IMG/VR virus record: IMGVR_UViG_3300008116_000018
Origin: a virus
Direction: 5' to 3' (one strand)
Length of the DNA stretch: 64,000 nucleotides
The notes below the pieces were generated by a model. That model searched no databases, was not told where the DNA came from, and worked only from the letters and a program-made list of their open reading frames with translations. Below are positions 12,570 through 61,350 of the stretch, piece by piece. How positions within the stretch are numbered: the first letter of the stretch is position 1; every line of letters begins with the position of its first letter. Position numbers and translations under genes: made by a program.

Positions 12570-13610
12570 TTATACTGTGAATTTTTGATTATGCGTCATA
12601 AAGTTTTTCTTACGCATAACTGTCTTTGCTACCAAATCTAACTCTTCAGAGTCTCTGTCCCACTTCAAAACGAATGGTAAATTTATCTGAGTTTGCATGT
12701 CATTCAATACTGCTTCTGCATCAGGTCCCAATGCAGGAATCCTTTTGCCATATTTTTGAATAGTTTTCTTGAACAACAACTGCAACTCATCAACTGTAAT
12801 TGGTTTACCATTACGTGAATCATTTACTCTATCCAGAAAGTGCTTAGTGAAAGATACATCAACATTCAATATTTTGAACAATTGGTCTAAATATTTCTCT
12901 AACTCTTTTAATTGAGATTGGGATACTTCTTCAACCAAGTGCCTTGTTTCGAATTGTTCTGTGAACATACCACTTCGCCCATATCGCAAAAAAATCATCG
13001 AGCCAGTTTTATCATCCTGTAGAATGATTGGCTTCTTAGGATACTTTCTACCATACTCACGAATTGCATTTCCAACTTCATCACTACCAACATACTTTTC
13101 ATATTTAAGATATTTCTTTTTACCAGTACGTGCTTTATTGAAACGTTCTGTGTCAACAACAAACACATCATTCTTTGCGAATCTACGTATGAATGCTCTG
13201 CTTGCTGGAGGGTTACCATCTAGTCCCGCAATACCACCTGTCACGTTTGCAATATCTTCTTCTATGCCTTCTGACAAATATGTCTTGCCATTGTAGTAGT
13301 CTAAGAATTGTTCTTCTAGTGTTTCTTCTTTAATGTTCTTTTCTTCTTTGAGAAGGAACAATGCGGCCGCATAAGACGCAAGTTTATTTTTACCGAATGG
13401 CAATTTTTCCAAAACTCGTTTAAGTTTTAGAATCAATAAGTCAAACTTAGTGAATGAATCGTCTTGTACTGGTGTTCTCTTTTCTGAAGGCACAACAATG
13501 TTTCCTTCGTCATCGATGACGCCAGTTTTGTTTGCTTCCCACTCTGCGAACGGTGTAGTAAACAATCTTAAAATTCTATACACTAAGTATAAGTCTACTA
13601 AATTTGCCAC
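12570..13610 (-). CDS. Modular late hypothetical protein with possible C-terminal RNase-like module
   Basis: 346 aa; T4-like conserved N-domain; C-terminal FTKHFLDR...KTVMRK. Confidence 0.7.
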   Translation of the reverse strand: MANLVDLYLVYRILRLFTTPFAEWEANKTGVIDDEGNIVVPSEKRTPVQDDSFTKFDLLILKLKRVLEKLPFGKNKLASYAAALFLLKEEKNIKEETLEEQFLDYYNGKTYLSEGIEEDIANVTGGIAGLDGNPPASRAFIRRFAKNDVFVVDTERFNKARTGKKKYLKYEKYVGSDEVGNAIREYGRKYPKKPIILQDDKTGSMIFLRYGRSGMFTEQFETRHLVEEVSQSQLKELEKYLDQLFKILNVDVSFTKHFLDRVNDSRNGKPITVDELQLLFKKTIQKYGKRIPALGPDAEAVLNDMQTQINLPFVLKWDRDSEELDLVAKTVMRKKNFMTHNQKFTV

Positions 13611-13967
13611 TTATATTCTTCTCTTTAAAATGTTATACAATGCCAAGTCCAAAACTTCCACATCTTCTAATTTAATATACTCAAGATAGATTAAAAATGC
13701 ATTCAACACATCGTGATGATTTACATCTATCTTGAACCTTAACATATTGACAGCCGCTTCGACACCAAACACATTTGAAAGAGAAATTATGTGATTCAAA
13801 ATCAATCTCTCTTTCAACTCATCTTTATCTACATATTTGTTTATGAGTCTTTTAATGTACTTAATTATTTTCAAGTCATCAAGAAATTCTAAAACAGATA
13901 CACAATTTGGATTTATGTAGTTGCTTACTGCGTACTCATCAAAGTTATCATTATTTAATATAGACAT
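13611..13967 (-). CDS. Conserved T4-like hypothetical protein
   Basis: YINPNC...EFLDDLK...ERLILNHII pattern typical of environmental T4-like phages. Confidence 0.75.
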   Translation of the reverse strand: MSILNNDNFDEYAVSNYINPNCVSVLEFLDDLKIIKYIKRLINKYVDKDELKERLILNHIISLSNVFGVEAAVNMLRFKIDVNHHDVLNAFLIYLEYIKLEDVEVLDLALYNILKRRI

Positions 13968-14503
13968 TAGAATGAACTTAGTGCCACTCGCTTGATTGTC
14001 GATGCATCAACAGCAATATACAAATAGCTTGCGTCCCAAGAAATTGTACCCACACCCCAACCAACAGCAGTATTGTTTGAACTTGCTGGAGTTTGTGTTG
14101 TACGAATACGAATAGCGTCAGAGTTAATATCAAGTGCTTCAGTTGGAGCATCAGTCATAATGCCGATCTTATCTGCTGAAGCATCAACATAAAACATGTT
14201 TGTTTGATTGTCAGATGCAATTTTAGTATCGGAATCTGCAAGCGTACTATTAATCGAAACACCCCTAGTCAAAATGGATTGTGTGTTTGATGTTAACGTA
14301 AAGTTGTTTGCACCCAATGATGTAGTGCCACTAGCAATGATGCTAATTGCATTGACATTTAATGCTGATGTTGCACCAAAGAAGTTATCTACAGTAATTT
14401 TCTTACTTACTGGTGAACCTAATGGATCATCGATGATTAATAACAAATCATCTTTTGTTGCTACAGTCGATGCTGTTAGCTGTGTTACTTTTTTATCTGC
14501 CAT
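13967..14503 (-). CDS. Putative virion structural/fibre protein
   Basis: MADKKVTQL...DDLLLIID start; C-terminal WDASYLYIAV...KRVALS fibre-like motif. Confidence 0.65.
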   Translation of the reverse strand: MADKKVTQLTASTVATKDDLLLIIDDPLGSPVSKKITVDNFFGATSALNVNAISIIASGTTSLGANNFTLTSNTQSILTRGVSINSTLADSDTKIASDNQTNMFYVDASADKIGIMTDAPTEALDINSDAIRIRTTQTPASSNNTAVGWGVGTISWDASYLYIAVDASTIKRVALSSF

Positions 14504-14563
14504 TTCTTTTCCTTAATGTAAACCCAATTGAATGGGAATGCTACTTCCGGGACTCGGACCAAA

Positions 14564-14583
14564 ATGGGGACCTAAGTCCCCAT
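14564..14583 (-). terminator. Hairpin followed by U-tract
   Basis: Minus strand ATGGGGAC-TTAG-GTCCCCAT then TTT. Confidence 0.55.
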
Positions 14584-14589
14584 GTATTA

Positions 14590-15363
14590 TTAAGCAATCG
14601 TCAATACTGCGTTTGCAGATACTGTGTTTGCACCAGTACCGCCTGTAACAGACATTTGAACACGATAGATAGAACCGCTTACTGCAACTGAAGAGTTTGC
14701 AAAGTTTAGAGTTGTTGTCGTTGTGTTTGTGAATGTACCTGTGTTTGTCAAATCTGCGAATGCTACGTTAGCATTAGCCGCACGTTGCCAACGATAGTTA
14801 ATCGTAGCACCAGTTGGTACAGATGTTGTAGCAATAGTGAATGTGTTTGCGCTACCAGCAGTAACAGTTTTGCTTGTTGGTTGTGTACCAATAACAAGTC
14901 TGTAATCTGGATAAACTGTGTCTTCTGCATCAGTAGTAATTGTAGCAAGTGTGCAAAGAACTTCTGATTTTCTGCGAATGTTTCCGTGCATGTCTGTATA
15001 CACGTTTGTGTAAACCCATCCAGGAATTTCATTATTAGCTGTTGCTTCGCCTGCATCAACGCCATAAACGTTTCCGATGCTCTGTACTGTTGCACCAGAA
15101 CCAGCGGCAAGCCATTTCGGTGATTGTTCTAGCGTAGCACTAACACCTGTAGTATTAGCGATTGCCCAAGCTGGACTAATCGTCAATGCAGTATTGCTAG
15201 TGATTCCGATAATTTTTGCGAAAGTGCTGTTAACGGTAATAACATCACCAACTTGTGCTTCTGTTGTAAAAACTGTGCTAGTGCCAGTGACTGTAGCCGA
15301 ACCGTTTGTTGTTGCTACTGTACCCGTCAATGCAAGTGCTTCTTTGTTTCCCCATAGTGCCAT
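14590..15363 (-). CDS. Putative virion protein with Ig-like C-terminal domain
   Basis: Thr/Ala-rich; TQP...YRWQ...GSIYRV...VSANAVLTI Ig-like pattern; late promoter upstream. Confidence 0.7.
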   Translation of the reverse strand: MALWGNKEALALTGTVATTNGSATVTGTSTVFTTEAQVGDVITVNSTFAKIIGITSNTALTISPAWAIANTTGVSATLEQSPKWLAAGSGATVQSIGNVYGVDAGEATANNEIPGWVYTNVYTDMHGNIRRKSEVLCTLATITTDAEDTVYPDYRLVIGTQPTSKTVTAGSANTFTIATTSVPTGATINYRWQRAANANVAFADLTNTGTFTNTTTTTLNFANSSVAVSGSIYRVQMSVTGGTGANTVSANAVLTIA

Positions 15364-15378
15364 GGTGTTCTCCTTTTA

Positions 15379-15873
15379 TTAATATCCTAGTTTTCGTAAT
15401 TGTGAAATAGTGTTCATACTATTTATATGTCGTATTCCAATTCCTCCAGCAGAAACCCATTCTTTGATGTTTTTTTCATAATCATCAATTAATAGATTGC
15501 GGGTTCCGTCCTTATTTACTGCAAATTTCTGTTTATCCTCTCTCGGGACAAGATAAATGTGTTCTACATTACCCAAATGTTTGCGAACCCATTCAATCTT
15601 TTCAGGCTTACATGTCGCCATACGTTTGGATGGTGTAGATAACACAAATGGATTGTGCGGTCTGATATATCTCCATAGCGTCATAGCGTCAGACATAGGC
15701 TCTAAGTTAGCCCAAAACTTTGGAACTTTACTTAGTGCTTCCCATTTGACATTCTTTTCTTCTTGCTGAAAAGGCTGTAGTCCTTGTGCAGTCAATACTT
15801 TATTTGCACCGCCCATAAAGTTGACTAACACTTGGTCCATGTCACAATATATTTGTGGCAATTCGTTATTCAT
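15379..15873 (-). CDS. HAD-family 5'(3')-deoxyribonucleotidase-like protein
   Basis: YCDMDQVL (DxD), LSTP and LLIDD HAD motifs. Confidence 0.8.
   Translation of the reverse strand: MNNELPQIYCDMDQVLVNFMGGANKVLTAQGLQPFQQEEKNVKWEALSKVPKFWANLEPMSDAMTLWRYIRPHNPFVLSTPSKRMATCKPEKIEWVRKHLGNVEHIYLVPREDKQKFAVNKDGTRNLLIDDYEKNIKEWVSAGGIGIRHINSMNTISQLRKLGY
15420..15427 (-). promoter_or_regulatory. T4-type late promoter (TATAAATA)
   Basis: Exact gp55 consensus about 57 nt upstream of the 14590..15363 gene. Confidence 0.6.
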
Positions 15874-15874
15874 T

Positions 15875-17482
15875 TTATTTTGCCGCATCTTTCAATTCGG
15901 GATTGATTTCGATTGGTTCTTTTTTACCAGTCAATGCATCACCCTTTTGAACTGTAGACTTGTTAGGTACTTCTTCTTCTTTTATTTTTTTCTTAATGTT
16001 TTTGAAAGATTTAGGTTTTTTAGCTTCAAGTACAACTTCTTCTTTGTTTAAAAGATTGTGATAGCGAACTGCTTTTTTCAAGTCTTTTCTTGCGTCTGGA
16101 TTCTTTGGATCACCTGCTTTGTCAAAATGATCGTCTGATTTTGCCTTTGCTTCAATACCACGCTTGATAGCTTTAATCTTATTCATTAAACCTTCAGACA
16201 TTTTCTTTCTAGCGGCTAATGCGGCTAGCTTTGCACGTTTGTCGGCAGCCTCTTTATCATGTGGCTTGTCGCTTGGCTTAACGTTCTTGTCGTATGCGTC
16301 ACTCTCTTCCATATCTTTTGGCTTCTTACCAGCCTTCTTCATTGCAATAGCAATGGCGGCTTGTTGTGCAGGGCTACCAGCTTCATCCAATTGAACTTCT
16401 TCAATGTACATGTTCAACTCATACTTCTGATTGTCCATGTTGTACACTTGAAGATGCAATGCTTTCTTAGATTCTTTGCCGTCTTTCTTTAACTTAACAG
16501 AAAATGAATTTGTTTTGCCTGACGATGGCTTCTTAGGACCGGTCGCAACTTTGTCGTGCCAGTCATCCATGTCTACTTCAAAGCCACGCTTCTCTGCTTG
16601 CTTGATAGCTGTCTGTACTGCACCAGAATAATCTTTGTGATAAACTTCGTAGTCAGACTTCGCTTCATCCATACGCCCATTAGATGCAAGTCTTTCTTTG
16701 CGTCTTTGTGCGGCAAAGTCTGCACCTTGTGGCTGTTTCTTTTTACTACGCAAATGCGCTAAGTCACTGCCATCAATTTTACCATTCTTGTTCTTGTCTA
16801 ATGCTTTTTGTTTTGGTGACAACTCCTCAGTCTTCTTACGTAAGTGTGCTAAATCAAATCCGTCAATCTTGCCGTTTTTGTTTTTATCAATTTCTTTTTG
16901 CTTCGGTGATAACTCTTCGGTTTTCTGCTTTGCATCATTGTCAAATTGTTTTCTAGTTGCTTTCATAATGCCAGAGAAACGCTTGTTACCTTTTTTTATA
17001 TCGCCTGCTTTATCGGCAGCCGTTGCATCAGCGCCAGCTTTCTTTTTGTAGTCTGCTAGTTTATCTGTTGACAATTCGGCAAGTTGAATTTCTTCTTTCA
17101 TGTTTTTTCTAGCAACACGATTCTGTGCAAGTTTAGATACGAACTTAACTTCAGCGCCAGCAAGAGATTGTAAAGATTTCAAATCTAATCTATCAAGCAT
17201 AGCAATCAATTTCTTGTATGTGTCACTTGATGGATCGATTGTATTAATCTTAGAGTACTCTGCTTTCAAAGCGGCGATCTGAGATGGGCTAAAAGATTCT
17301 TCAATGCCTTCTTTGACTTGCAAAGATTTCTTTTGCTGTTGAAGTGCGGCACGTTCTTTCTCTTGCTTCAAACGTAACTGAATTGACTTCAATGTCAATT
17401 GGGCACGTTTCTCAGATTGCTTTGTATCTGCAACTTTTGTTCCAGAGCCAACTTCTGCTTCTTGAATATTTTTATCTGTCAT
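15875..17482 (-). CDS. Lys/Ala-rich modular protein, probable internal head protein
   Basis: 535 aa of short modules separated by (I/L/V/M)xE sites; GGTGGAG SD. Confidence 0.7.
   Translation of the reverse strand: MTDKNIQEAEVGSGTKVADTKQSEKRAQLTLKSIQLRLKQEKERAALQQQKKSLQVKEGIEESFSPSQIAALKAEYSKINTIDPSSDTYKKLIAMLDRLDLKSLQSLAGAEVKFVSKLAQNRVARKNMKEEIQLAELSTDKLADYKKKAGADATAADKAGDIKKGNKRFSGIMKATRKQFDNDAKQKTEELSPKQKEIDKNKNGKIDGFDLAHLRKKTEELSPKQKALDKNKNGKIDGSDLAHLRSKKKQPQGADFAAQRRKERLASNGRMDEAKSDYEVYHKDYSGAVQTAIKQAEKRGFEVDMDDWHDKVATGPKKPSSGKTNSFSVKLKKDGKESKKALHLQVYNMDNQKYELNMYIEEVQLDEAGSPAQQAAIAIAMKKAGKKPKDMEESDAYDKNVKPSDKPHDKEAADKRAKLAALAARKKMSEGLMNKIKAIKRGIEAKAKSDDHFDKAGDPKNPDARKDLKKAVRYHNLLNKEEVVLEAKKPKSFKNIKKKIKEEEVPNKSTVQKGDALTGKKEPIEINPELKDAAK
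16748..16925 (-). repeat. Tandem duplication (about 29 aa) with EF-hand-like loop
   Basis: KTEELSPKQKEIDKNKNGKIDGFDLAHLR followed by KTEELSPKQKALDKNKNGKIDGSDLAHLR. Confidence 0.9.
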
Positions 17483-17496
17483 TTTTTATCTCCACC

Positions 17497-20271
17497 TTAA
17501 TCTAAATCGCTTACGCTTTTGTCTGAACGCCACATTTGGCAAGACCAATAGTTTGCTTTCCACTTTGGTCCGGGATTGTCGCAACCGTGTCTAGCACGAT
17601 AACTCTTTAATCTCTCAGGATCGTCACGTTTGATTTCCATATTGGGATCACCAAAACGAACGACAACAACTTTACCATTTGGTCCCATAGTGTAGACACC
17701 AAACTTCTTCGGACCATCAGATGTTCTGAATGGATCGTTCAACTTAACAGACTTACCTTGATACTCTGCTTCGTTAACAACTTGTTCCCAATCAACTTCT
17801 TCTAGTACTTCTTCTACTTCTTCGTTTTTAGGGCGACAGTCGGGAACCATTCTGTTGCCTTTTTTCTTCATACCAACTTGTTTGTGTGTGTCCCAACATG
17901 CTTCGTCAACGACAGCATTTTCATCACAATCATCACAACATGTTTCTTCAGATTGTCCTGGCGTATCTTTTGCATACTTCTTACGCATTGCATCTGTACC
18001 CCACTCTAATGCTTCAGCAAATCTAGAAAACTCTTCGTTACTTCTAACTTTGGAAGCTAAGTCTTTATCTGCTTTACCCCAAGTGCCAGGACCTTTTGTA
18101 ATGAATGAATTCACTCTAGCAAATGCCCATTGCTGTGGTGTTGTTCCAGGACGATGGCCACCTTGCCATGCGGCCATACCTCTGTCGTAAACTGCTTTGA
18201 GAATGCTATAAGCAATACCAGACTTTTCTGATTTCTTTTTCAAGCCTTCGATTTCTTCTAAGATTGGCTTGAATTCTTCGTAAGCATCACCAAACTCATC
18301 TGGTTCCATTTGACTTGCGTACATATCTAACTCTGCGCCAGAAAACTCACCATCGTCTTCTTCCTCGCCACTATCTTCGTCATCATCTTGATAATCAAAG
18401 TCGCCTTCGAATTCTAAGTAATCACGTACTGTTGAAACGTAATCGGCAGCCTTAGTGATCTTAGATAGAACCCAAGCATCTGGCTCTTCATCCATTTCAT
18501 CCATCATTTCAAGCAATTCTTCTGCGTCTTGAATCATGTTAGAAACTTCAATCTGCGCCATTGACAGTCCATCAGTCTCATCATAGTCATTGTCATCGTA
18601 CTCATCGTCTTCGCCCATGAGTTTCATACCAGTAACGTCTTGAATCATTTTCCAAGCGGCTGATTGATTCTTATCGGCAATAAGTTTCTTGAGTTTTTCT
18701 TTTTCTTGTGGTGTTGCAACTTGGAAGAACTTCATCATCTCCATTGCACCAATGTTGCCTTTGTATGCGGCTTCATCAATAGATTCTTTTTGCAACTGCG
18801 TCTTTGTCATTCTAAACAATGCATCGCTTGAAGTTACCATATCAAGTAGCGTTGTCAACAAATCATTTGTGACATTTCGTTCTGACGGATTCAACATGTC
18901 GCCAGATTTTAATTTCTCAACGGAACGCTTAATGACTGTAAGAGATTTAGTGTCTGCCAATCCCAAACGAACCAATTGATCTAATCTAGAAACTTCTTTT
19001 CTTTCTTCTGGTGTCTTTACTGCTTCACCATACATCTGTTTGAATTTGAGTGTATGCTTTGATTGTTGCATACCTTTTTCTCTTGCCTCTTTGTCACCAG
19101 GCGCATCTTTATATGCACTCTTGTCTGAATCTGATTTTGGTCCAGTTTTCTCAAAGTGTGATGCTCTAGCGTCTTTTGTATCTTTGTCTAAACCAACATA
19201 ATACTTTTTCGGTTGTGTTCCATCTCTCTTTGCAATATCTTTGTCTTGCGGTATAGTTGGTTTCTCAACAATGAATTGCTCGAACATATGATTCAAATCT
19301 TCTCTTTTCATCATCATGTTTTTACGTGCAACTTCTTTACTTCTAGCGGCTGGCACTAAACGTACTGCAAACTTTTTAATTGCAGGCAACATCTTTTGCA
19401 ATCTAGTGTCGATTGCAATTTTCTCTCCAGTACCCAAGTCTGCATAGTTCTTACCACCAGCAAGGCGTCCTCTGAAGAATTGATATGCCATTTTAGCGGC
19501 TCTTCTTTTTAATCTCTTAGGGTCGGCAAAACGTTTTGCTTGTAATGCTCTTGCTCTGACTAAACGCTTTTGAATTCGTTTAAATTGTTGCGCTCTTTGT
19601 CTACGTTGTTTGTAGCCAAGAACTGCTTCGTCTTGTTGTTCTATTTCTTCGTTCATGCCACCACCTATGTATTTGTCTAAAAGTTTTTTCACCTTAGCTT
19701 TACTTCTTGCTTTTGGATATAAATCACTGATGATTTTATCTCTGCCTTCTGAGTCTGCGTCCGAATACATTTTTCTAACTTGACTACCAGAGAATGCTTC
19801 TTTGCCATTAACTTTAAAGTCGTGTTTCTTAGTCACAAAAATATATGCGTGTGTTTCGAATGATTCACATTTATCAATGCTGACAAATGGCTGATAGTAC
19901 GCTGGCGAACCATCTTTCTTTGTGTACTTCATTGGGTCACGTTCAGAACGAACAAGAATGAGAACATCTTTCTTTTCGTCATACTTCTTCATAATCTCTT
20001 CTGGATTAATCGGCTGAACGACCTGAACGAAATCGTCTGTAACTCCTGCTTGCTGTGCTAGGAATTCTTTGTCTTTGAATGGGATTGGGCGAACCTTTGT
20101 GTCGTTGCTAGATGCAACATAAAAGTCTGGAGTGCGAAATTTGGATTTGGCTTGAGTGTAACTACTCAAATGACCGGCGTGAAATGGCTGAAAGCCACCG
20201 CCATATACGACAATTACTTTGCCTTTGGCTTTTGCTTCATCAAGCAATATTGATTCTTTAAACGATTTCAT
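17497..20271 (-). CDS. Large modular protein: N-terminal HxGH nucleotidyltransferase (cytidyltransferase-like) plus many small domains
   Basis: YGGGFQPFHAGH and SGSQVRK NTase motifs; N-terminus MKSFKESILLDE; late promoter upstream. Confidence 0.8.
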   Translation of the reverse strand: MKSFKESILLDEAKAKGKVIVVYGGGFQPFHAGHLSSYTQAKSKFRTPDFYVASSNDTKVRPIPFKDKEFLAQQAGVTDDFVQVVQPINPEEIMKKYDEKKDVLILVRSERDPMKYTKKDGSPAYYQPFVSIDKCESFETHAYIFVTKKHDFKVNGKEAFSGSQVRKMYSDADSEGRDKIISDLYPKARSKAKVKKLLDKYIGGGMNEEIEQQDEAVLGYKQRRQRAQQFKRIQKRLVRARALQAKRFADPKRLKRRAAKMAYQFFRGRLAGGKNYADLGTGEKIAIDTRLQKMLPAIKKFAVRLVPAARSKEVARKNMMMKREDLNHMFEQFIVEKPTIPQDKDIAKRDGTQPKKYYVGLDKDTKDARASHFEKTGPKSDSDKSAYKDAPGDKEAREKGMQQSKHTLKFKQMYGEAVKTPEERKEVSRLDQLVRLGLADTKSLTVIKRSVEKLKSGDMLNPSERNVTNDLLTTLLDMVTSSDALFRMTKTQLQKESIDEAAYKGNIGAMEMMKFFQVATPQEKEKLKKLIADKNQSAAWKMIQDVTGMKLMGEDDEYDDNDYDETDGLSMAQIEVSNMIQDAEELLEMMDEMDEEPDAWVLSKITKAADYVSTVRDYLEFEGDFDYQDDDEDSGEEEDDGEFSGAELDMYASQMEPDEFGDAYEEFKPILEEIEGLKKKSEKSGIAYSILKAVYDRGMAAWQGGHRPGTTPQQWAFARVNSFITKGPGTWGKADKDLASKVRSNEEFSRFAEALEWGTDAMRKKYAKDTPGQSEETCCDDCDENAVVDEACWDTHKQVGMKKKGNRMVPDCRPKNEEVEEVLEEVDWEQVVNEAEYQGKSVKLNDPFRTSDGPKKFGVYTMGPNGKVVVVRFGDPNMEIKRDDPERLKSYRARHGCDNPGPKWKANYWSCQMWRSDKSVSDLD

Positions 20272-20335
20272 ATGTAATAGAGTTTTCCGTAGACTTATCT
20301 GTTCAGGTTTGCCGTAGCCTAACTGTGTTATAGTT

Positions 20336-20343
20336 TATTTATA
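20336..20343 (-). promoter_or_regulatory. T4-type late promoter (TATAAATA)
   Basis: Exact consensus in the intergenic gap upstream of the 924-aa gene. Confidence 0.8.
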
Positions 20344-20345
20344 AT

Positions 20346-21140
20346 TTACATGAATGCTAGAAGTATGGGGTCTGCCTTTAATGCTACTTCATCAATTGCC
20401 GCACTAGCGCCTTTTTTAAGGGGTGCAATGTTATATGGGGATTTTGATACTTTACCGAATTGTAACGTCATAACAAACTGATAGTCTCCACCACCCTTAT
20501 ATTGACAGCGAACACGAATAACCGCAGATGCATTCTTAGCAAAATCGGGAATCGGAGAATTCTTGTTTGCTTTGAGTTTTGGCTGTAGACCCAATAAGTC
20601 TTTGCCTGCTAATGTAAAGAATCCGTGAGTTCCCACATTGATATACGAACATTTTTTTGCAATGTAATAGTCACATATTGCTTTTGCTGGAATAGGCACA
20701 TGCACTTCATTTTGCGCCCCAAACTTTTCTAAATCTGATTTGTATGCGGCCGCCTTATCTTTAGCACCAACTATGACTTTTTTACCTCTTTCATCATTTT
20801 GCAAAGAAGGCACCTTACCACGCCAATCTTTACCGTGAGTTCCACTAGTGTTCATCTCTTTTAGCAAATTGAACTTCTTTGCTAATTCAACTAAGAATTC
20901 TTTCTCAGGATCAGTTCCAATGTCACCGAATTGCCACTTACCATCGTAGTATTTCATAACTAAAGAACCAGCGGCAGTCGGTGAATTTTTAAGTTCGCAA
21001 CCAGTAGGCTTTTTACCTTTTGCTTGAATAGTCAAATCTGGTTTGTCGTGTGATGCGCCGGCAGTTCCACCCGTTGAAATCTTATATTTGTTCAACGCCT
21101 TATATGCATTCTCTTCGTATAAAAAGCCTTCTTGTGCCAT
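20346..21140 (-). CDS. Putative PD-(D/E)XK endonuclease-like protein
   Basis: E...KPDLTI...CELK spacing fits a PD-(D/E)xK catalytic motif. Confidence 0.55.
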   Translation of the reverse strand: MAQEGFLYEENAYKALNKYKISTGGTAGASHDKPDLTIQAKGKKPTGCELKNSPTAAGSLVMKYYDGKWQFGDIGTDPEKEFLVELAKKFNLLKEMNTSGTHGKDWRGKVPSLQNDERGKKVIVGAKDKAAAYKSDLEKFGAQNEVHVPIPAKAICDYYIAKKCSYINVGTHGFFTLAGKDLLGLQPKLKANKNSPIPDFAKNASAVIRVRCQYKGGGDYQFVMTLQFGKVSKSPYNIAPLKKGASAAIDEVALKADPILLAFM

Positions 21141-21159
21141 TTTTTATTCCATTTAATTA

Positions 21160-21483
21160 TTATACTGTGAAACTACTACCACACCCACACGTTTGTTTTG
21201 CGTTAGGATTGATAAACACAAACTCTTTACTCATCAACTTTTCTTGATAGTCTATTGTTGCACCTTGAAGATATTGCATACTCGTAGCATCTACAAGTAC
21301 TTTAAATTCTCCAAGAGAAACTTCAAAATCATCTTCGTTCATTATTTCATCGAATGTAAATCCGTAGTTGAATCCCGAACATCCGCCACCTTGAATGAAT
21401 GCTCTCAAAGATAGATTTGGATTATTTTCTTCCATCAACAAGTCTATGATTTTAGACTTTGCAACATCTGTTATTGTAATCAT
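21160..21483 (-). CDS. erpA: A-type Fe-S carrier (ErpA/IscA family)
   Basis: GGGCSGFNY and [14 protein letters not shown] signatures. Confidence 0.9.
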
Positions 21484-21835
21484 TTATAGCCGCCTTTATA
21501 GCATCTTCTGCAAGTATTGAACAATGAATTTTAACCGGTGGTAAGGCAAGTTCTTCAGCAATTTGTGAATTAGATATCTTTCCTGCTTCGTCAAGTGTTC
21601 TGCCCTTGACCCACTCTGTAACAAGACTGGAACTTGCAATTGCACTTCCACATCCGTATGTTTTGAATTTCGCATCTGTAATTACTCCATCTTCTACTTT
21701 AATTTGAAGTTTCATAACATCGCCACACGCTGGCGCACCCACCATACCCGTACCTATGTTATCGGCATCTTTGTCGAATGATCCCACATTTCGTGGATTT
21801 TCGTAATGATCTAAAACTTTTTCAGAATATGACAT
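21452..21835 (-). CDS. iscU: Fe-S cluster scaffold IscU
   Basis: [29 protein letters not shown] and LPPVKIHC. Confidence 0.95.
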
Positions 21836-21896
21836 ATTTACCGTTAAAAATAGTTACCCGATGTATACATAAAGGTGTCCGGTTTCAAATTAAACC

Positions 21897-22346
21897 TTAT
21901 TTAGATCCCCATACAATGTACCATGAAATCCAAGCGGCTACAAAGAAACACCAAAATTGAACCCATCTAACTTTTGACAACTCAGCATCAAAATACGCTT
22001 TGTCTGCTTGTTCTATCTTTTCAATTTCATTCTTAATCTGAATAACTTTATCCCACTCTTTAGTTCCGTACTTCTTTACAAACTCTACCCTTAATTTGTA
22101 CTCTTCTTCCGATATTTGCTTGCGGTGTCGGTACTCTTCAAGGGCTTTAAATATTGCTTTTTCTTTTCTTAACTCTGCTTCTCTGCGTTCACGAATTTTT
22201 GCATTCGCTCTTTCTTTTGCAACATCTACCGCTTCCCTTTGAACATCTTCGATATTCTTGCCAATTTCTCTTCCGGCTTCTCTTCCAGTTTTAAAGCCTT
22301 CGCTTATACCCTTGGCACCAGCCAAGAACCCAAATTCATCTGGCAT
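21897..22346 (-). CDS. Coiled-coil protein with C-terminal TM helix
   Basis: 149 aa, charged helical body and aromatic hydrophobic tail. Confidence 0.7.
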   Translation of the reverse strand: MPDEFGFLAGAKGISEGFKTGREAGREIGKNIEDVQREAVDVAKERANAKIRERREAELRKEKAIFKALEEYRHRKQISEEEYKLRVEFVKKYGTKEWDKVIQIKNEIEKIEQADKAYFDAELSKVRWVQFWCFFVAAWISWYIVWGSK

Positions 22347-22354
22347 GTCTCAAC

Positions 22355-23581
22355 TTACCTCTGCCAACCTTTAATGATATCAGGCGAGAAGTTTGCGTAA
22401 CTGAATTGCATTCTGTCAACTAACTTGACTGCATTGCCTTTGATCTTGTCGATTGCAACATAACCCTCAACACCAGTCACTTCGTAGCCTTTCTTAGTCA
22501 ACAAGAAAGTGTTCAACGTTTTAACTTCATCCATCTTCTTAATCAAAATCAACTTCGCTTCTGCTAAGAGATTCATCATTGTGAAAATGTCTTCTAGATG
22601 TGATTTGTTTTTTGGCGAGAAGAATTTAAGCACTTTGCTTTTCTTTAGCATCTGAGTAGCACGACCACGTTCACCTTTGCCCTCGGCTTGTTTCTCGTAG
22701 TAATCTTCTATGTAGGTAATCAATTCTTTAACGTGCGCTTTGACGTTTGTGATTTTCAACTGTTGACGTACTTTTGAATTGTTGAATGTCTTAATGCGTT
22801 CAATCAAGTCTTCGTCTGTATTGATGTAGTTTAGTGTTGGTGCATCTAGCTTTTGGAATATCTTTCCAGCTTCAGATAGAATTGCAGTCACTTCATCATT
22901 TTCTGATTGTGTGAGTGTAGCTTTACCTGATACGTCTTGATAGACTGCACTTGTCATCCAAACGTTTGGTGTCTTTGTGAGTGTGCTTAGAATATCTTTA
23001 CCAAAGACTGCGGACATTGTTTCGAATGTATCGCCTTCGTAAATTGTATGCCAGACAATGCCAATCTTTGCTCTTTTGATATCTTTAGCAAGTTCACTTT
23101 CTGACGGTACTGCATACACTAGCGTATTTGGATGAAACGTGACGTATGATTCGCCTTCAATTGTTTCTGTCTTCAAGTCTGACTGTGTGAATAGTAAGTC
23201 GCCTTGAATGACGCCTTTGATGTTGATCTTAGGCAAATACATCAAACATGCTTTGAGTTTGGTTGCTAAGTCGCCAGAAGTGTCTGCATCAATTTCTGCT
23301 GGAGTTTTGTATACTTTGGGATTTTTATTGAAGACGCCCTTCTTCGCAACAAAGAATTTGCCGTCTGTTGGATCTTGTCCTGCAAAGACTGCTGGCGCAC
23401 CATCCCATTTGACTGAAATGTCAACTTTGCTTTTGGAATGTCCAGCAAGCATATCACGCACCGCTCTGAGTGCGTTTATGCTATCTCTAGTTCCTTCAAC
23501 ACCCCCATTAAGAACATCGTCTTCCGCATGTTCCATGTGAGTGTTTTTCTTTTCAATAAGGTATTCTTTAAATTTAAACAT
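22355..23581 (-). CDS. Conserved T4-like late protein with ligase-superfamily motifs
   Basis: SVKWDG, IQGDLLF, EGYV and VKLV; N-terminus MFKFKEYLIE. Confidence 0.7.
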   Translation of the reverse strand: MFKFKEYLIEKKNTHMEHAEDDVLNGGVEGTRDSINALRAVRDMLAGHSKSKVDISVKWDGAPAVFAGQDPTDGKFFVAKKGVFNKNPKVYKTPAEIDADTSGDLATKLKACLMYLPKINIKGVIQGDLLFTQSDLKTETIEGESYVTFHPNTLVYAVPSESELAKDIKRAKIGIVWHTIYEGDTFETMSAVFGKDILSTLTKTPNVWMTSAVYQDVSGKATLTQSENDEVTAILSEAGKIFQKLDAPTLNYINTDEDLIERIKTFNNSKVRQQLKITNVKAHVKELITYIEDYYEKQAEGKGERGRATQMLKKSKVLKFFSPKNKSHLEDIFTMMNLLAEAKLILIKKMDEVKTLNTFLLTKKGYEVTGVEGYVAIDKIKGNAVKLVDRMQFSYANFSPDIIKGWQR

Positions 23582-23606
23582 GATAGGTCTGTCGTTGCAA
23601 TAGACC

Positions 23607-23614
23607 TATTTATA
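23607..23614 (-). promoter_or_regulatory. T4-type late promoter (TATAAATA)
   Basis: Exact consensus about 26 nt upstream of the ATG at 23581. Confidence 0.8.
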
Positions 23615-55592: not shown

Positions 55593-56921
55593 TTACATCA
55601 AGTTAGTAATTGCAATTCTACGATAGTAGATGTTCTTATTAGCGAATGCTAATGTACCGTCAGCGGCTGATGTTGCGAATGGGTTTGCGACCATACCATA
55701 ACGTGTCTTAAATCCAATTTTTGGTTGGAAAGAATCTTGACCAACTGCACGAACCATTTGCAACGGAACGTATGGGCAATAGAACAAGCCAGCGTCAAAA
55801 GCTGAAGTGCCTTTGTAACCGATTGTTGCATAGTGTGTACCAGATGTTGCGGCGAAATATGGATCGATGTAAACCTTGATACGACCATTCAATACACCAG
55901 CGAATGTGTTACCAGAGTCATCAACTTGCAAGTTGTTTGCAAGTGCTGGAGTGTAATCAAGAACACCAGCCATTTGCAATGCAGATGCTACGTCTGAAGA
56001 ACAGATAAGCACGTTACCTTTACCACGGCGAGTTGCTTTAGCGATTGCGTTGGACTCACGCTCCAATTGGAACATCAAGCCTTTGAACTTCTCAACAGAC
56101 CAACGACCGTTAGCATCAACGTCAAGGTTGAATGTACCAGCAGTTGTAACGTTTTCTTGTGCGCCAACAGTAGCTGTGATGTTGATTGTACGAACAACTT
56201 CACGGTTAATTTCAGCTAAAATTTCTGTAGAAAGAATGTTAGCCAATTCTTGTTCAGCATCCAAACCATGGACTGCTTTCAAGTCTTGTGCTAATTCCAT
56301 TGTGTATTCTGCTTTCAAAGCACGGCTACGTGCAGTAACAGCAACTTTCTCAATAGAGAATGCCATCTCTTGGAAACCTTGACCAGAACCATCACCCAAT
56401 GCTTCAGCTTGTGCTGTAGTGAAACCAGTACCACGTGTGTACTCTGTACCACTAGACAAGTCAGCAGGTGATGCACCTGTCTGTGATTGTGCTGTAGATG
56501 GGAATGCTGTGTTAGCTTCGTTGAACAATGCTTCAGTACCACTTTGTGATGTGTAACGTGAACGCATTGCAAAGATCAAGCCTGTTGGACCTGTCATTGG
56601 TTGAACACCGCAAATGTCGTATGCGATCAAGTTAGGTGCGGCACGGCGAACCAAGCTGATTAAGACTGGATCGTAAAGGTCGATTGAACCATCGCCTGCT
56701 GTAGATGAAGATGCGCCCATGTTGTTAGCAGGTGCGGCTTCAGACAACAACGATGTTTGGTTGCGATAACCACCAGAACCCTGTGCATCACCACGGCAAG
56801 CAATTTCTTGGTTCTCAAGAAGCTGTGCCGTTACGGAACGCTTGTGGGAATCCTTGATTGCGGCTAAATCGCCATGGTCAAGAACTGGTGCCCATTTTTT
56901 TAAAAGATTTTCTACGCTCAT
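55593..56921 (-). CDS. g23: Major capsid protein gp23
   Basis: GVQPMTGPTGLIFAMR, ELAQDLKAVHGLDAE and KTRYG; maturation site LSE-A. Confidence 0.98.
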   Translation of the reverse strand: MSVENLLKKWAPVLDHGDLAAIKDSHKRSVTAQLLENQEIACRGDAQGSGGYRNQTSLLSEAAPANNMGASSSTAGDGSIDLYDPVLISLVRRAAPNLIAYDICGVQPMTGPTGLIFAMRSRYTSQSGTEALFNEANTAFPSTAQSQTGASPADLSSGTEYTRGTGFTTAQAEALGDGSGQGFQEMAFSIEKVAVTARSRALKAEYTMELAQDLKAVHGLDAEQELANILSTEILAEINREVVRTINITATVGAQENVTTAGTFNLDVDANGRWSVEKFKGLMFQLERESNAIAKATRRGKGNVLICSSDVASALQMAGVLDYTPALANNLQVDDSGNTFAGVLNGRIKVYIDPYFAATSGTHYATIGYKGTSAFDAGLFYCPYVPLQMVRAVGQDSFQPKIGFKTRYGMVANPFATSAADGTLAFANKNIYYRRIAITNLM

Positions 56922-56949
56922 GTTTTTCTCCTTTGAGTATTGTTTAATT

Positions 56950-56957
56950 TATTTATA
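56950..56957 (-). promoter_or_regulatory. T4-type late promoter
   Basis: TATAAATA upstream of g23. Confidence 0.85.
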
Positions 56958-56962
56958 AAAAC

Positions 56963-57847
56963 TTATTTCTTCAGTGTTCTAGAAATATTTTGTACATAGT
57001 GGTTCATTACAGGAGTGAATGATTCTTCGATAGTAGAAACATCATCGTCCATTGGAGCCGCCTTTTTGACTGTATCTTTTGAAGATTCATCAAAATATTT
57101 CTTCTTTGTTAGAAGAAGTTTTTCTTTGTAGTCTTGTTCAGAAACAAATTCAATGCCTTCTGCTAAAGATTTCAACTTTGCAGATTGAACTTCGCTAAGA
57201 CCTTCAGAAACTTCGCCAACGATATGGTCTTTCTTGTAAACACTAATTTGTGCATTCAAATTTGCAACTTCAGTTACTGCTTTGTCTAACTCAGACTCAA
57301 GCACTTCAACTTGCTCTGCAAATTCTTCAACAACATTTACTTTGTCTTCTGGAATATCAACATAATGCTCTGTGAATAGATTTTTAAGTCCAATCATGAA
57401 ATCTTCAGCTAATTCAGCTTTGATGCCTTTTTCGATAGCTAATTTGTTGTCTTCCATCCATTCAGTCACAACATACTCAAGGTATTCGTCAACTTTTGTG
57501 ACCAAGTTTTCATTGATCGAATTGACTTCTTCTTGAAGTTTAATAGAATATTCTTCGTCTAATTTAGTTGTTGCTTCTTCTACCTTAGCAAAAATTGCCG
57601 CTTCAAAGATAGCTTTAGCATTGTTTTTGAATTCTTCAGAAAGAGATTCGCCAGAGAAAATAGCATCAATGTCTTCTTTCATTTTTGATTGCTTTTTCTC
57701 TTTCATCATCTTTTCTTTTTCATCATCAGACTCTTCGCTATCGTCAGTGTCAACTTCTTTAGCTTTTTTCTTTTCGATGGCTGCTTTTAACGCAGGTGGA
57801 AGTTCTCCTTCCAACAATTCATCATCCTTGTTATTTACATCGGTCAT
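56963..57847 (-). CDS. g22: Prohead core scaffold gp22
   Basis: LSEEFK..AKAIFEAA and VDEYLEYVVTEW; synteny. Confidence 0.92.
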   Translation of the reverse strand: MTDVNNKDDELLEGELPPALKAAIEKKKAKEVDTDDSEESDDEKEKMMKEKKQSKMKEDIDAIFSGESLSEEFKNNAKAIFEAAIFAKVEEATTKLDEEYSIKLQEEVNSINENLVTKVDEYLEYVVTEWMEDNKLAIEKGIKAELAEDFMIGLKNLFTEHYVDIPEDKVNVVEEFAEQVEVLESELDKAVTEVANLNAQISVYKKDHIVGEVSEGLSEVQSAKLKSLAEGIEFVSEQDYKEKLLLTKKKYFDESSKDTVKKAAPMDDDVSTIEESFTPVMNHYVQNISRTLKK

Positions 57848-57903: not shown

Positions 57904-58554
57904 TTATAGCTTGGAGATGAAATTTTTGAAGACTTTTATCATGTTTTCTTCTAAGTCTTTCTTAGAAGATTTGACAATAACATCCTTTTGTTTTTGAATG
58001 TCAGCTTCTCTGATAATTCCATTGTCCCAAACCCATGCTTTATCTTCCATGATACCACGTACATATGCATCTGGTGCTGAAGGATCGGCTACGATATCTG
58101 CACAAGTTGCAAGATAAAAATCATTACCAACAACTTTAGTTCCATCTTTTCCTTCTACAAGACTACCTAAGCCTCTTGTAGATACGCCTAATGTTGCGCC
58201 TTCAGCCATCAAATTCTTTACGATGTTGCCGTACGGTGTGTCCATAATCTTTGCTTTACCGATGAAATTATTTCCATCTTGACGTAAACTCTTAGTAATG
58301 TGTGATACACGTTCTAAGTTAATAGTTGGACCATCTGGATGTCCCAACTCACCATAAGCACGATTCTTCATTACGTGTTCTGTTACATATCTTTCGGTTT
58401 CTTTTTGCAAAACATCTAATGGATACATTCTTCCATTACGATTCTTTTGTTCTGCTTGCATGAAGATACCTTCAATGAAGAAACTTCTACCGCCAGCTTC
58501 GTTTGCTTCGGTGATGATATTTACTTGCTCATTGATTTCTGTAATTAGTTTCAT
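57904..58554 (-). CDS. g21: Prohead protease gp21
   Basis: NRNGRMY, GELGHP, GVSTRGLGS and DIVADPSAPDA. Confidence 0.95.
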   Translation of the reverse strand: MKLITEINEQVNIITEANEAGGRSFFIEGIFMQAEQKNRNGRMYPLDVLQKETERYVTEHVMKNRAYGELGHPDGPTINLERVSHITKSLRQDGNNFIGKAKIMDTPYGNIVKNLMAEGATLGVSTRGLGSLVEGKDGTKVVGNDFYLATCADIVADPSAPDAYVRGIMEDKAWVWDNGIIREADIQKQKDVIVKSSKKDLEENMIKVFKNFISKL

Positions 58555-58841
58555 TTTAGTCCCGCCGATGTTCTCTTTTTAAGTGACCTTGTTCTTTTAC
58601 GTAGAATCAAAGCAAGTTTTGGTGCACGTTTTCTAGCCGCTTTGCGTTGTGCAATTCTACGATGCATTTTTTCTTGTGAAGACATTCTGACAAGTTTGCC
58701 TCCTAAGACTTTATATCCAGGTGTTGCAGAAACAACTTTTCTGCGCTGAACAATTCCAGCACGTACTCTATTGACTTTTACAATTCTAGCTTCATCTAAC
58801 TGTTCATCAGAGAGAGATATAAACTCTTTAAATTTCAACAT
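58551..58841 (-). CDS. g68: Prohead core protein gp68-like
   Basis: Arg/Lys-rich body ending RKRTRSLKKRTSAGL; immediately upstream of g21. Confidence 0.75.
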   Translation of the reverse strand: MLKFKEFISLSDEQLDEARIVKVNRVRAGIVQRRKVVSATPGYKVLGGKLVRMSSQEKMHRRIAQRKAARKRAPKLALILRKRTRSLKKRTSAGLK

Positions 58842-59305: not shown

Positions 59306-59812
59306 TTATTCTTCCGCTATAGTTTTTGCAAATGCTAAAAGTACTTCAACATCTTCTTCCAACTGATTCAAAAAGATTTCTTGATTGCTTTCATCTAGTT
59401 TGTCATACAAATCAGAAAGTAACTCAACGTCTTCATTCTTTAAAGCACCACGTGCCTTTGCGGCTTGAAGCATATCTAGTCTATCCTTAACACCTTTGAT
59501 ACCAGGCTTGATATCTTTAGCGGCTTTCTTTTCAGCGGCATTTGGTTTGTTGATATGCTTCATTGTAGTACTAGACTGATGACTCTCAGCTTCACCGAAT
59601 GGTTGCTTGTTATCGAGTCTGTCAGCCGGACGCTTGCCAGAACCTTTTTTGGTGTCGTGCGGTCCAACCTCTTCAGGTCCTACTTTTTCTAAATCGCCTG
59701 GATCTTTTACTTGGGCAAGATACGACACGGCTGCCATTTTATTGGCAATGCCGTCTTTATATTTTACTCGTTCTATTTCATCCAACTGGATAAAACTTTT
59801 AAAGTTCTTCAT
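59306..59812 (-). CDS. Putative internal head protein
   Basis: N-terminus MKNFKSFIQLDE resembles a capsid-targeting sequence; head operon. Confidence 0.65.
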   Translation of the reverse strand: MKNFKSFIQLDEIERVKYKDGIANKMAAVSYLAQVKDPGDLEKVGPEEVGPHDTKKGSGKRPADRLDNKQPFGEAESHQSSTTMKHINKPNAAEKKAAKDIKPGIKGVKDRLDMLQAAKARGALKNEDVELLSDLYDKLDESNQEIFLNQLEEDVEVLLAFAKTIAEE

Positions 59813-61342: not shown

Positions 61343-61350
61343 TATTTATA
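61343..61350 (-). promoter_or_regulatory. T4-type late promoter
   Basis: TATAAATA upstream of the 60914..61315 gene. Confidence 0.75.

Follow-up and report, generated by a model that had tools for sequence, protein, structure and literature searches.

Does this phage fill its head with proteins that enter the host along with the DNA, and are its largest late proteins chains of such cargo? The question is raised by a 64,000-nt stretch of DNA, here called the window, whose source is an uncultured marine T4-like (Kyanoviridae-like) myovirus. According to the original prediction, several late proteins carry a T4-type capsid-targeting leader, and the large ones are strings of modules joined at sites of the form (I/L/V/M)xE-(A/S/G), here called the strict motif, at which a gp21-type protease would release small effectors. 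Because a T4-type tag stands on several late proteins and swappable modules meet at Glu sites, we conclude that the phage probably packs and injects a protein kit.

Head machinery and leader-bearing genes

The following features of the window concern the head machinery, the leaders and a late-promoter-like motif (here and below, a hyphen after Glu marks the site).

55593..57847, minus strand: gp23 major capsid protein together with the gp22 scaffold (7 strict sites), which serve as reference substrates for the protease (PHROG, alignment)
57904..58554, minus strand: gp21-type prohead protease (Peptidase_S77, E=2.1e-35)
58551..58841, minus strand: 96-aa gp68-like prohead core protein with leader MLKFKEFISLSDEQLDE-A (phrog_3503; matrix rank 1)
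59306..59812, minus strand: 168-aa protein in the head-core gene cluster with leader MKNFKSFIQLDE-I (pattern and matrix)
22355..23581, minus strand: 408-aa DUF6267 protein (Pfam DUF6267, E=1e-106)
23552..23581, minus strand: codons of its leader MFKFKEYLIE, followed by KKNTH (leader analysis)
23607..23614, minus strand: T4 late-promoter-like TATAAATA, 25 nt upstream of the 408-aa gene (motif scan)
17497..20271, minus strand: 924-aa candidate cargo polyprotein, a chain of about nine modules
20236..20271, minus strand: its leader, aa 1-12, MKSFKESILLDE-A (pattern, T4 comparison and matrix)
20336..20343, minus strand: TATAAATA, 64 nt upstream of the 924-aa gene (motif scan)

Over 144 aa the window protease shares 40% identity with T4 gp21, and the GELxHP and GVSxRG motifs of the two line up; the scaffold matches phrog_237 (E=9e-76). 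The site LSE-A that had been read in gp23 is present at residue 61, where it aligns with LTE-A of T4 gp23. The late-promoter-like motif also lies upstream of gp22 and gp23, and all 9 of its copies in the window are on the coding strand (4.0 expected, both strands combined), late timing being predicted from this sequence motif.

Translation confirmed the four leader-bearing ORFs, their minus-strand coordinates and the N-termini originally quoted for them. These N-termini match M-x(1-3)-[FY][KQ][EDSQ][FYSIL][ILV], a pattern with four occurrences in total when all six frames of the 64 kb are read, every one of them on the opening Met of an ORF (96-924 aa). Since the pattern was derived from the same four ORFs, we built an independent nine-column matrix from 17 leaders, all of them taken from other phages (T4, HTVC008M, Melnitz, C48C1, DLP_6, S-CREM2 and S-PM2). 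Scored against 86 window proteins (20,007 positions), the four leaders rank 1, 4, 6 (tie) and 12, the first place falling to the 96-aa gp68-like protein; internal leader-like relics score low, at 6.3 and 5.6 bits.

The window leaders resemble those of T4 IPI, IPII and IPIII as taken from the T4 record. The key residues are F4, Y7, L8 and E10 in the 408-aa protein, F4, F7 and I8 with Glu at 12 and 17 in the 168-aa and 96-aa proteins, and F4, S7, I8 and E12 in the 924-aa protein, which departs from the tag at position 7, Ser standing in place of the aromatic residue in its family. A leader is present in 101 of the 120 listed relatives of the 408-aa protein. Among the 39 distinct leaders of this family F4, Y/F7, L/I8 and E10 are each kept in 39/39, and only these positions are fixed, with 5-7 residue types at each of positions 2, 3, 5, 6 and 9. 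They are the very positions that T4 genetics, in the available text of PMC9026906, links to targeting (residues 4 and 7 of the IPIII tag) and to processing (residues 8 and 10). The analysis supports the view that the window leaders behave like T4 capsid targeting sequences.

Modular architecture of the candidate cargo

Behind its leader, the 924-aa protein can be divided as follows.

19627..20235, minus strand: aa 13-215, HxGH nucleotidyltransferase (GGGFQPFHAGH), end QQDE-A (Pfam CTP_transf_like)
19264..19626, minus strand: aa 216-336, very basic module (pI 11.6), end FIVE-K (C48C1 comparison)
19024..19263, minus strand: aa 337-416, QDKDI...KFKQMYGE module, end YGE-A (585 clusters contain the module)
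18772..19023, minus strand: aa 417-500, module with end LQKESIDE-A (Q492, L493, Q494 and E496 invariant)
18604..18771, minus strand: aa 501-556, AAYKG module, which some relatives have and others lack (family indels)
18253..18603, minus strand: aa 557-673, strongly acidic segment, end FKPILEE-I (E672 and E673 invariant)
18004..18252, minus strand: aa 674-756, DUF5824 module, end ALE-W (Pfam; C48C1 comparison)
17770..18003, minus strand: aa 757-834, Cys-rich segments (CCDDC; CWDTHK...PDC), end VVNE-A (family indels)
17500..17769, minus strand: aa 835-924, C-terminal module (phrog_7595; PHROG match)

Seven PHROG families match separate parts of this protein, whose relatives reach 1377 aa. The nucleotidyltransferase named in the original prediction is borne out as an HxGH enzyme by PF01467 (CTP_transf_like; 27.2 bits against a cut-off of 21, aa 22-108, FHAGH present), with TIGR00125 just under its cut-off (25.8 against 27.7), and most relatives listed have this module swapped for a second transferase type. 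In the acidic segment D and E make up 45 of 117 residues (pI 4.05), and the CWDTHK unit, present or absent in relatives, has a different place in Melnitz and C48C1.

In the 408-aa protein, the ligase-like label is limited to short motifs. K-W-D-G, E-G-Y-V and K-L-V-D-R are invariant across the DUF6267 family, as are K58, D60, G61, E372, G373 and K386 in 17 sequences. A covalent nucleotidyltransferase (ATP-dependent ligase or capping enzyme) would be expected to combine the KxDG lysine of motif I with profile or fold similarity to ligases, but comparison by hhalign with T4 Rnl2 and with T4 DNA ligase yielded a probability of 0.3%, and PDB searches were empty or returned E of at least 0.75. The RNase-like label found no match in profile searches of the segments. 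Pfam and PHROG profile searches likewise gave no match between the cargo and T4 IPI-III or Alt, and Pfam searches with whole proteins and 10 segments (E<=1) gave none to a peptidase or to other hallmark domains of polyvalent proteins (MPTase, ART, MuF, ArdC-N).

Two further ORFs lie downstream of the 924-aa gene.

15875..17482, minus strand: 535-aa basic protein with short leader MTDKNIQE-A, 8 strict sites and two EF-hand/dockerin-type loops
12570..13610, minus strand: 346-aa protein with GTG start, without leader, membership doubtful

The 535-aa protein corresponds to two adjacent Melnitz genes, and its EF-hand-like label stands for Dockerin_1 (25.4 against a cut-off of 22.9) but just misses for EF-hand_1 (25.3 against 25.4). 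The 346-aa protein has no tag-type leader at its N-terminus. Its last 118 residues align with the terminal part of phrog_23027, and the central part of that family aligns with the basic module found in the 924-aa protein. Genes for IscU, an A-type carrier and a deoxyribonucleotidase are also found in the stretch and lie outside the system.

Glutamate joints and module exchange

The joints of the 924-aa protein are Glu sites in a context wider than the strict motif (QDE-A, IVE-K, YGE-A, IDE-A, LEE-I, ALE-W, VDE-A and VNE-A). Counted against 2000 shuffles, the strict motif is clearly enriched in the 535-aa protein (8 against 1.7, P<0.0005) and in scaffold gp22 (7 against 2.0, P=0.0025); the 408-aa protein has 3 against 1.3 (P=0.13). 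The claim that the large proteins are joined by this motif is only partly confirmed, since in the 924-aa protein it is not enriched (4 against 3.0, P=0.35).

Relatives encode several of these units apart. In C48C1 three modules of the 924-aa protein are separate genes (123, 90 and 105 aa), every one headed by a leader: the 123-aa gene equals the basic module (aa 216-336), its first post-leader residue aligning with V217, one residue past the QDE-A joint; the 90-aa gene is the DUF5824 module; and the phrog_7595 module is likewise a separate leader-bearing gene. Conversely, P0077 and P0080 have DUF6267 fused ahead of the transferase, with MKESFIxE-A retained at the joint. These arrangements support the view that the large proteins unite, in fused form, units that stand alone in relatives behind leaders of their own.

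Gain and loss of modules point to the same sites. The QDKDI module, as a unit of 81 aa, is absent in 8 of 100 aligned relatives of the 924-aa protein, the gap running precisely from the FIVE site to the MYGE site. Indel events with a Glu no more than 3 residues from either end number 14 of 23 in the 924-aa family (3.3±1.5 at random) and 52 of 98 in the 535-aa family (11.6±3.3), where the events are mutually non-independent and the null draws random positions over the whole protein, so that Glu-rich linkers alone could put indel ends near Glu. Gain and loss had been proposed to fall at xE sites; with a hydrophobic P3 required in addition to Glu, only 5/23 and 14/98 events, respectively, remain within ±3 residues. 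Module gain and loss at Glu sites far above random placement is nevertheless supported. Taken as a whole, the T4-style reading of tagged cargo is partly supported: it held up in the behaviour of the leaders, in the modular fusions and in the place of module gain and loss, but not in the strict-site enrichment of the 924-aa protein or in part of the domain labels.

Proposed mechanism and alternatives

We regard it as fairly probable, judging from sequence, that tagged cargo is loaded on the core, that the gp21-type protease removes the tag and separates the modules, and that the basic and enzyme modules are injected. Late proteins would bear a tag of the T4 internal-protein type (aromatic at 4, aromatic or hydrophobic at 7, L/I at 8, Glu at about 10-12), which would bind them to the gp22/gp68 scaffolding core during prohead assembly. 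The gp21-type protease would then cut after Glu and so take off the tag; the 924-aa and 535-aa proteins would most likely also be split into modules at the conserved hydrophobic-x-Glu joints. What would remain with the DNA and be injected are the basic and enzyme modules, among them the DUF6267 enzyme, the EF-hand-like units and the HxGH nucleotidyltransferase, and acidic pieces would exit the head, as scaffold fragments do. Units could fuse, split and swap freely at the joints because the mature pieces would be identical, fused or separate. It is from the conserved Glu that we infer tag removal and ejection with the DNA; the modules may also have a role in the host.

It is unlikely, in our view, that the proteins are packaged but stay uncut inside, with only the leader removed and the joints serving as linker or helix-cap motifs or as recombination hot spots. 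In T4 Alt (682 aa), a packaged enzyme of large size, cutting is confined to the two ends, at ITE-6 and LTE-619 (PMC5694885), so a long packaged protein need not undergo internal cutting; the lack of strict-motif enrichment in the 924-aa protein fits this, and several indels have the joint motif as a direct repeat on either side, which recombination joints would be expected to show. A recombination joint, however, should be constrained at the DNA level and not at a single residue. In a survey of the QDKDI module (150 representatives, 50% identity or less), the residue aligned to E416 is Glu in 131/133 contexts with more than 6 aa downstream, although the sequence after the Glu is unrelated between matches; where the protein ends within 6 aa the end residue is D, D, D, K and E (Fisher P=5e-6), so that Glu is replaced in 4/5 cases with nothing to release. 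Of 108 internal contexts, 78 have a hydrophobic-x-E in the 14 aa upstream (24.1±4.0 in random windows). Fused and separate forms would, moreover, give identical mature pieces only with cutting.

A role for the tagged proteins in building or filling the core, with degradation by gp21 and exit of most of the material from the head before DNA entry, seems to us quite improbable. The best leader score does belong to the gp68-like core protein, another leader lies in the head-core gene cluster, the 117-aa acidic segment resembles segments of scaffold proteins, and gp22 has the same type of site enrichment. Yet a scaffold has no need of enzyme modules or of very basic ones (pI 11.6), and homologous cytidylyltransferases and neighbouring proteins remain in mature CsCl-purified virions. 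Leader-bearing cytidylyltransferases occur in the virion proteomes of two cultured cyanophages (PMC10665884, PMC9146016): S-CREM2 ORF154 (MKNFSSFLTE-A) was detected by MS in purified particles (PMC10665884), as was S-SZBM1_140 (MRFRQFIIE-A; PMC9146016). S-SZBM1_139 was also detected by MS in that phage, and the leaderless DUF6267 protein of S-SZBM1 (gene 141) goes unnamed in the main text of PMC9146016. Among 35 S-CREM2 ORFs that we scored, six of the seven best leader scores belong to virion-detected proteins, including a SAM hydrolase, a kinase and ORF13; the authors warn that these MS data may include co-purified abundant proteins (PMC10665884).

It is highly improbable that there is no capsid tag and that the N-termini of proteins cytoplasmic in late infection reflect a translation-start constraint or shared descent of the 5' end, for although MK-rich starts are common among highly expressed genes and TTTAAAGA is the sole DNA-level sequence common to the four leader genes, conservation is at the protein level and position-specific (4, 7, 8 and 10 fixed, the rest free), high leader score accompanies virion detection in S-CREM2, and the phrog_7595 module, leader-bearing in T4-like phages, starts directly at Met without leader in a podovirus and an archaeal spindle virus.

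Comparison with known systems

Read as tagged cargo that is probably processed by the head protease and injected, the locus has close counterparts in S-CREM2 (PMC10665884) and S-SZBM1 (PMC9146016), which share the gene neighbourhood after primase-helicase and leader-bearing HxGH transferases, although their cytidylyltransferases, at 286 and 362 aa, are shorter than the window polyprotein. The available text of both accounts treats these as metabolic genes or possible contaminants and names neither a targeting tag nor protease sites.

Polyvalent proteins of phages and conjugative elements (Iyer et al. 2017), as described in the available portion of PMC5512222, are likewise multidomain (2-15 domains), are proposed to accompany the DNA and to function in the host at an early stage, and have domains shuffled among relatives. 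The 924-aa protein shares with them the many unrelated domains on one polypeptide in a phage late/packaging context, but not the hallmark domains searched for above. An embedded metallopeptidase is proposed to process them, whereas the window joints match the head protease instead, and the phrase 'capsid targeting' has 0 occurrences in that paper.

In phiKZ, 201phi2-1 and SPN3US, cleavage of many proteins inside the head follows Glu in a motif of three residues, as is proposed for the window, a gp21-like protease processes head and ejection proteins, and propeptides, some with several sites, have been proposed to target the prohead (PMC5694885, PMC10052503). Their motif has a small P3 (A/S/G-x-E) whereas that of the window is hydrophobic, and these giants are without a T4-type tag and are not described as having chains of unrelated, swappable modules.

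The internal proteins of T4 and their capsid targeting sequence (Mullaney and Black 1996, described in PMC9026906 and PMC3012670) offer a close parallel. IPI, IPII, IPIII and Alt share with the window proteins an N-terminal tag of about 10 aa with equal key positions and late-promoter-like motifs, varied cargo stands behind a constant tag, and a gp21-type S77 protease, gp22 scaffold and gp68-like core protein are encoded together. The window phage differs from T4 in its marine host; the tag is also found on a core protein, and the cargo units are chained into proteins of 535-924 aa with conserved Glu joints.

The N-terminal leader

The leader that the original prediction described on several late proteins, an N-terminal sequence of about ten residues like the T4 capsid targeting sequence, is fully confirmed. 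A loose leader pattern searched through six frames of the window gave exactly four matches, each the first Met of an ORF, and these ORFs encode proteins of 924, 408, 168 and 96 aa. Because the loose pattern came from these same four ORFs, an independent matrix was trained on 17 leaders from other phages only; when 20,007 positions across 86 proteins of the window were scored, it placed the four N-termini at ranks 1, 4, 6 and 12. All long ORFs of the window lie on the minus strand, and those discussed most are:

12570..13610, minus strand, 346-aa protein
15875..17482, minus strand, 535-aa basic chain
17497..20271, minus strand, 924-aa candidate multi-module cargo polyprotein
22355..23581, minus strand, 408-aa leader-bearing DUF6267 protein
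55593..56921, minus strand, major capsid protein, at most 66.9% identical to those of cultured phages

In the T4 record the corresponding leaders read MKTYQEFIAE-A (IPII and IPIII) and MKTFKEF... (IPI), the hyphen here and below marking a known or predicted Glu cut or joint position. Among the 120 listed relatives of the 408-aa protein, the leader is present in 101, and the other 19 begin at an internal Met. The former group comprises 39 distinct leaders, every one of which has F at position 4, Y or F at 7, L or I at 8 and E at 10 (39/39 each), while positions 2, 3, 5, 6 and 9 are free, with 5-7 residue types apiece. At the level of sequence, this conservation of positions is the strongest single result on the leader. 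Amber-suppressor tests of the IPIII tag, as summarised in a review, assigned residues 4 and 7 to targeting and 8 and 10 to processing, with Asp at position 10 blocking processing and leaving targeting intact (PMC9026906). The 924-aa family departs from this pattern, with Ser at position 7 of the leader.

The DUF6267 proteins of cyanophages begin without a leader at a conserved KNTH...EH box, so that the leader is an add-on. In a roseophage podovirus and a thaumarchaeal spindle virus, the module that forms the C-terminus of the 924-aa protein starts with a Met; in the T4-like phage C48C1 it starts with a leader.

Several further sequences resemble the leader. The short leader of the 535-aa family, M(T/S)D(K)NIQE-A, is similar to the leader of Alt, which is six residues long and is cut at ITE-6. 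Rank 2 of the leader matrix in the window falls on the C-terminal 10 residues of the gp21 protease (KVFKNFISKL; 57907..57936, minus strand), and rank 3 on an internal 10-residue stretch of a 424-aa protein that contains collagen-like G-x-y repeats (61346..62620, minus strand). C-terminal targeting of a gp21-like protease has been proposed for SPN3US; we rejected the idea that this end of gp21 is a conserved tag, the protease ends of S-CREM2 and T4 being unlike KVFKNFISKL. Candidate relics of full tags inside the 924-aa protein (MFEQFIVE, LKFKQMYGE and EFKPILEE) were likewise set aside, as they reach only 5.6-6.3 bits with the independent matrix, among many chance matches, and the case for its internal boundaries is therefore built on Glu joints.

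Genomic context

The major capsid protein finds its cultured matches in Stenotrophomonas phage DLP_6, Methylophilales phage Melnitz, pelagimyophages and cyanomyoviruses, and T4 gp23 is 37% identical to it. Genes upstream of it encode a gp22-type scaffold, an S77 prohead protease that shares 40% identity with T4 gp21, and also a gp68-like core protein. Megablast against 50,697 phage records found no DNA near-identical to 12570-23614. Past the primase-helicase, an order of DUF6267 gene, small genes, 'cytidyltransferase', long basic protein and deoxyribonucleotidase is common to the window, HTVC008M, Melnitz, C48C1, DLP_6, S-PM2, S-CREM2 and S-SZBM1. The proposal that 12570-23614 forms one cargo stretch holds in part, as it includes unrelated genes and the 346-aa protein, whose N-terminus on inspection bears no leader.

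Two other loci of this region may be recorded. An IscU-like gene and an A-type (HesB/IscA-like) Fe-S carrier gene form a pair between two tagged genes (21160..21835, minus strand), neither with a leader. A 257-aa protein (14590..15363, minus strand) has the N-terminus MALWGNKE, and its positional counterparts, the 'S-layer domain protein' of HTVC008M and Melnitz and the 'virion structural protein' S-SZBM1_136, begin similarly, a likeness that refers to the compared starts; S-SZBM1_136 is reported from S-SZBM1 virions (PMC9146016).

Modules and Glu joints

Seven PHROG families match separate parts of the 924-aa protein. C48C1 has three of its modules as stand-alone genes (123, 90 and 105 aa), every one with a leader, and the first residue past one of these leaders aligns with V217, one residue beyond the QQDE-A joint. 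The 535-aa protein's counterparts in Melnitz are two adjacent genes, the join in the 535-aa protein being ...VQLDE-AGSPAQQ, and in two metagenome relatives (P0077, 1377 aa; P0080, 1314 aa) DUF6267 is fused N-terminal to the transferase, with a shortened leader, MKESFIxE-A, retained at the joint. Modules are also swapped, as two HxGH transferase types alternate among close relatives, GGGFQPFHAGH versus SFGRMNPxTNGH (window 19627..20235, minus strand; P0027, P0120), both behind one leader and ahead of one MNxEELEQQDE joint.

The module at aa 337-416 of the 924-aa protein (QDKDI module) allowed one joint to be followed through many contexts. Residues 327-420, searched against 1.84 billion representatives, matched 585 clusters at E ≤ 0.001, and in the best 150 of the 585 the module occurs at many positions in proteins of 94-2336 aa. 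Within these best 150, 133 matches continue for more than 6 residues past the position of E416, and 131 of them have Glu there; the five matches that end there have D, D, D, K and E (Fisher P = 5e-6 against the continuing contexts). The sequence past this Glu is unrelated between matches; HTVC008M, Melnitz, C48C1 and the window phage each have a different module after ...KFKxMFGE-. Of 108 internal contexts, 78 have a hydrophobic-x-E within 14 residues upstream of the module core, against 24.1 ± 4.0 in random windows; so do 29 of 34 N-terminal contexts, a count that excludes 7 in which the module is preceded by fewer than 9 residues. In 57 closer relatives, hand-picked for spread from 120 listed, E215, E416, E672, E673 and E756 are invariant and E336 and E834 at least 90% conserved.

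The strict motif of the original prediction, (I/L/V/M)xE-(A/S/G), fared unevenly. Relative to shuffles, the 535-aa protein (8 vs 1.7) and the scaffold (7 vs 2.0) have an excess of it and the 924-aa protein (4 vs 3.0) does not. Only 48 of 138 aligned matches have A, S or G as P1' at the E416 joint. The joint motif is confirmed in a wider Glu form.

Insertions and deletions point to the same residues. The 924-aa family alignment comprised 100 of the 120 listed relatives, the 20 without a leader pattern in the first 20 residues being left out, and in 8 of the 100 an 81-aa module is missing whose ends fall exactly at FIVE- and MYGE-; inserts of 61 and 64 aa have joint-motif repeats on both sides. 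The 535-aa family (P0242-P0361) spans 509-936 aa at 45-93% identity across shared parts and shows 98 roughly distinct indels of at least 20 aa. Table values come from 924-aa family members longer than 700 aa and from all 120 listed members of the 535-aa family; they are rough, as events were merged loosely and cannot be treated as independent, and linker composition does not enter the null. The expectation that module gain and loss would fall at xE sites was borne out in this rough test for Glu-flanked ends and, in a smaller share of events, with a hydrophobic P3.

Indel events with both ends at most 3 residues from Glu, observed and expected under random placement (rough test)
Family; Glu at both ends; random placement; with hydrophobic P3; expected
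924-aa; 14/23; 3.3 ± 1.5; 5/23; 0.4
535-aa; 52/98; 11.6 ± 3.3; 14/98; 1.4

Virion proteomes of relatives

The proteins reported from CsCl-purified virions of S-CREM2 include the cytidylyltransferase ORF154 as well as the neighbouring ORF155, ORF156 and ORF160, with a warning from the authors that abundant proteins may co-purify (PMC10665884). The N-terminus of ORF154 is MKNFSSFLTE-A. When leader scores were compared across 35 S-CREM2 ORFs, with virion status as reported in PMC10665884, six of the top seven were virion-detected, the SAM hydrolase, the kinase and ORF13 among them, and only 1 of 19 undetected ORFs scored as high as the top leaders. The 'non-structural' virion proteins, the SAM hydrolase ORF6, the kinase ORF14, ORF13 and the cytidylyltransferase ORF154, start with a T4-type leader. 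The Cas9-like ORF12 has LRFASFMAE-A at residues 17-25. In S-SZBM1, the products of genes 140 and 139 are reported from virions (PMC9146016); the former begins MRFRQFIIE-A and the latter contains a Cys module of the 924-aa protein, and the leaderless DUF6267 protein (gene 141) is not named in the main text of that report.

Function searches

Two of the proposed effector labels found no support. DUF6267, called ligase-like, gave no significant hhalign score against T4 Rnl2 or T4 DNA ligase; phmmer and profile searches of the PDB returned 0 matches and 3 matches at E ≥ 0.75, and the ESM Atlas gave only viral clusters without names and no model. The end of the 346-aa protein, called RNase-like, was searched against Pfam together with six other segments, with a best E of 0.028 and all far under the cut-offs. 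NCBIfam gave nothing except the transferase, and the sole PDB match to the profile of the hand-picked 924-aa alignment was phosphopantetheine adenylyltransferase (E = 0.019).

Discussion

Overall the original observation is partly confirmed and its interpretation partly supported. The tagged proteins are very probably packaged, and the long ones would probably be cut at one joint or more; that the pieces so released serve as injected effectors is a reading we judge evenly balanced. More broadly, marine T4-like phages may share a plug-in grammar for head cargo, in which small units bounded by tag-like hydrophobic-x-Glu joints load behind a single leader and are released by the head protease; as any jointed unit could be so loaded and released, units would pass freely from stand-alone genes into long chains and back. 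We lean neither towards this proposal nor against it. If true, it would give 'non-structural' enzymes (nucleotidyltransferase, SAM hydrolase, kinase) a general route into the virions of the ocean's commonest myoviruses, to be injected as a first-minute toolkit, and would offer a simple, testable reason for cytidylyltransferases, kinases and SAM hydrolase in cyanophage particles. The leader would then predict injected phage proteins by sequence alone, and the relatives of the 924-aa protein, at least 2254 at E ≤ 0.001 among 8000 candidates scored, point to a large untapped pool of early-acting phage proteins.

The T4 capsid tag has so far been regarded as a feature of T-even coliphages, and in the openly accessible literature searched we found no description of the tag or of protease-cut cargo chains in marine or cyanobacterial T4-like phages. 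Here a distant marine lineage keeps it at each of its key positions, and its use goes beyond single small proteins to whole chains of exchangeable units. The head proteins of giant phages are alike in multi-site Glu cleavage, which is predicted in the window phage, and differ in a small-residue P3 that is absent here. Polyvalent proteins share the multidomain logic and differ in an embedded peptidase, for which Pfam searches of the proteins discussed here gave no match. As T4 Alt illustrates, packaging of a large enzyme need not entail cuts other than at its ends (PMC5694885). With the T4 internal-protein and capsid-tag system, all sequence-level features tested are held in common, a likeness known here from sequence; in contrast to that system, the window phage carries other cargo and chains its units through conserved Glu joints.
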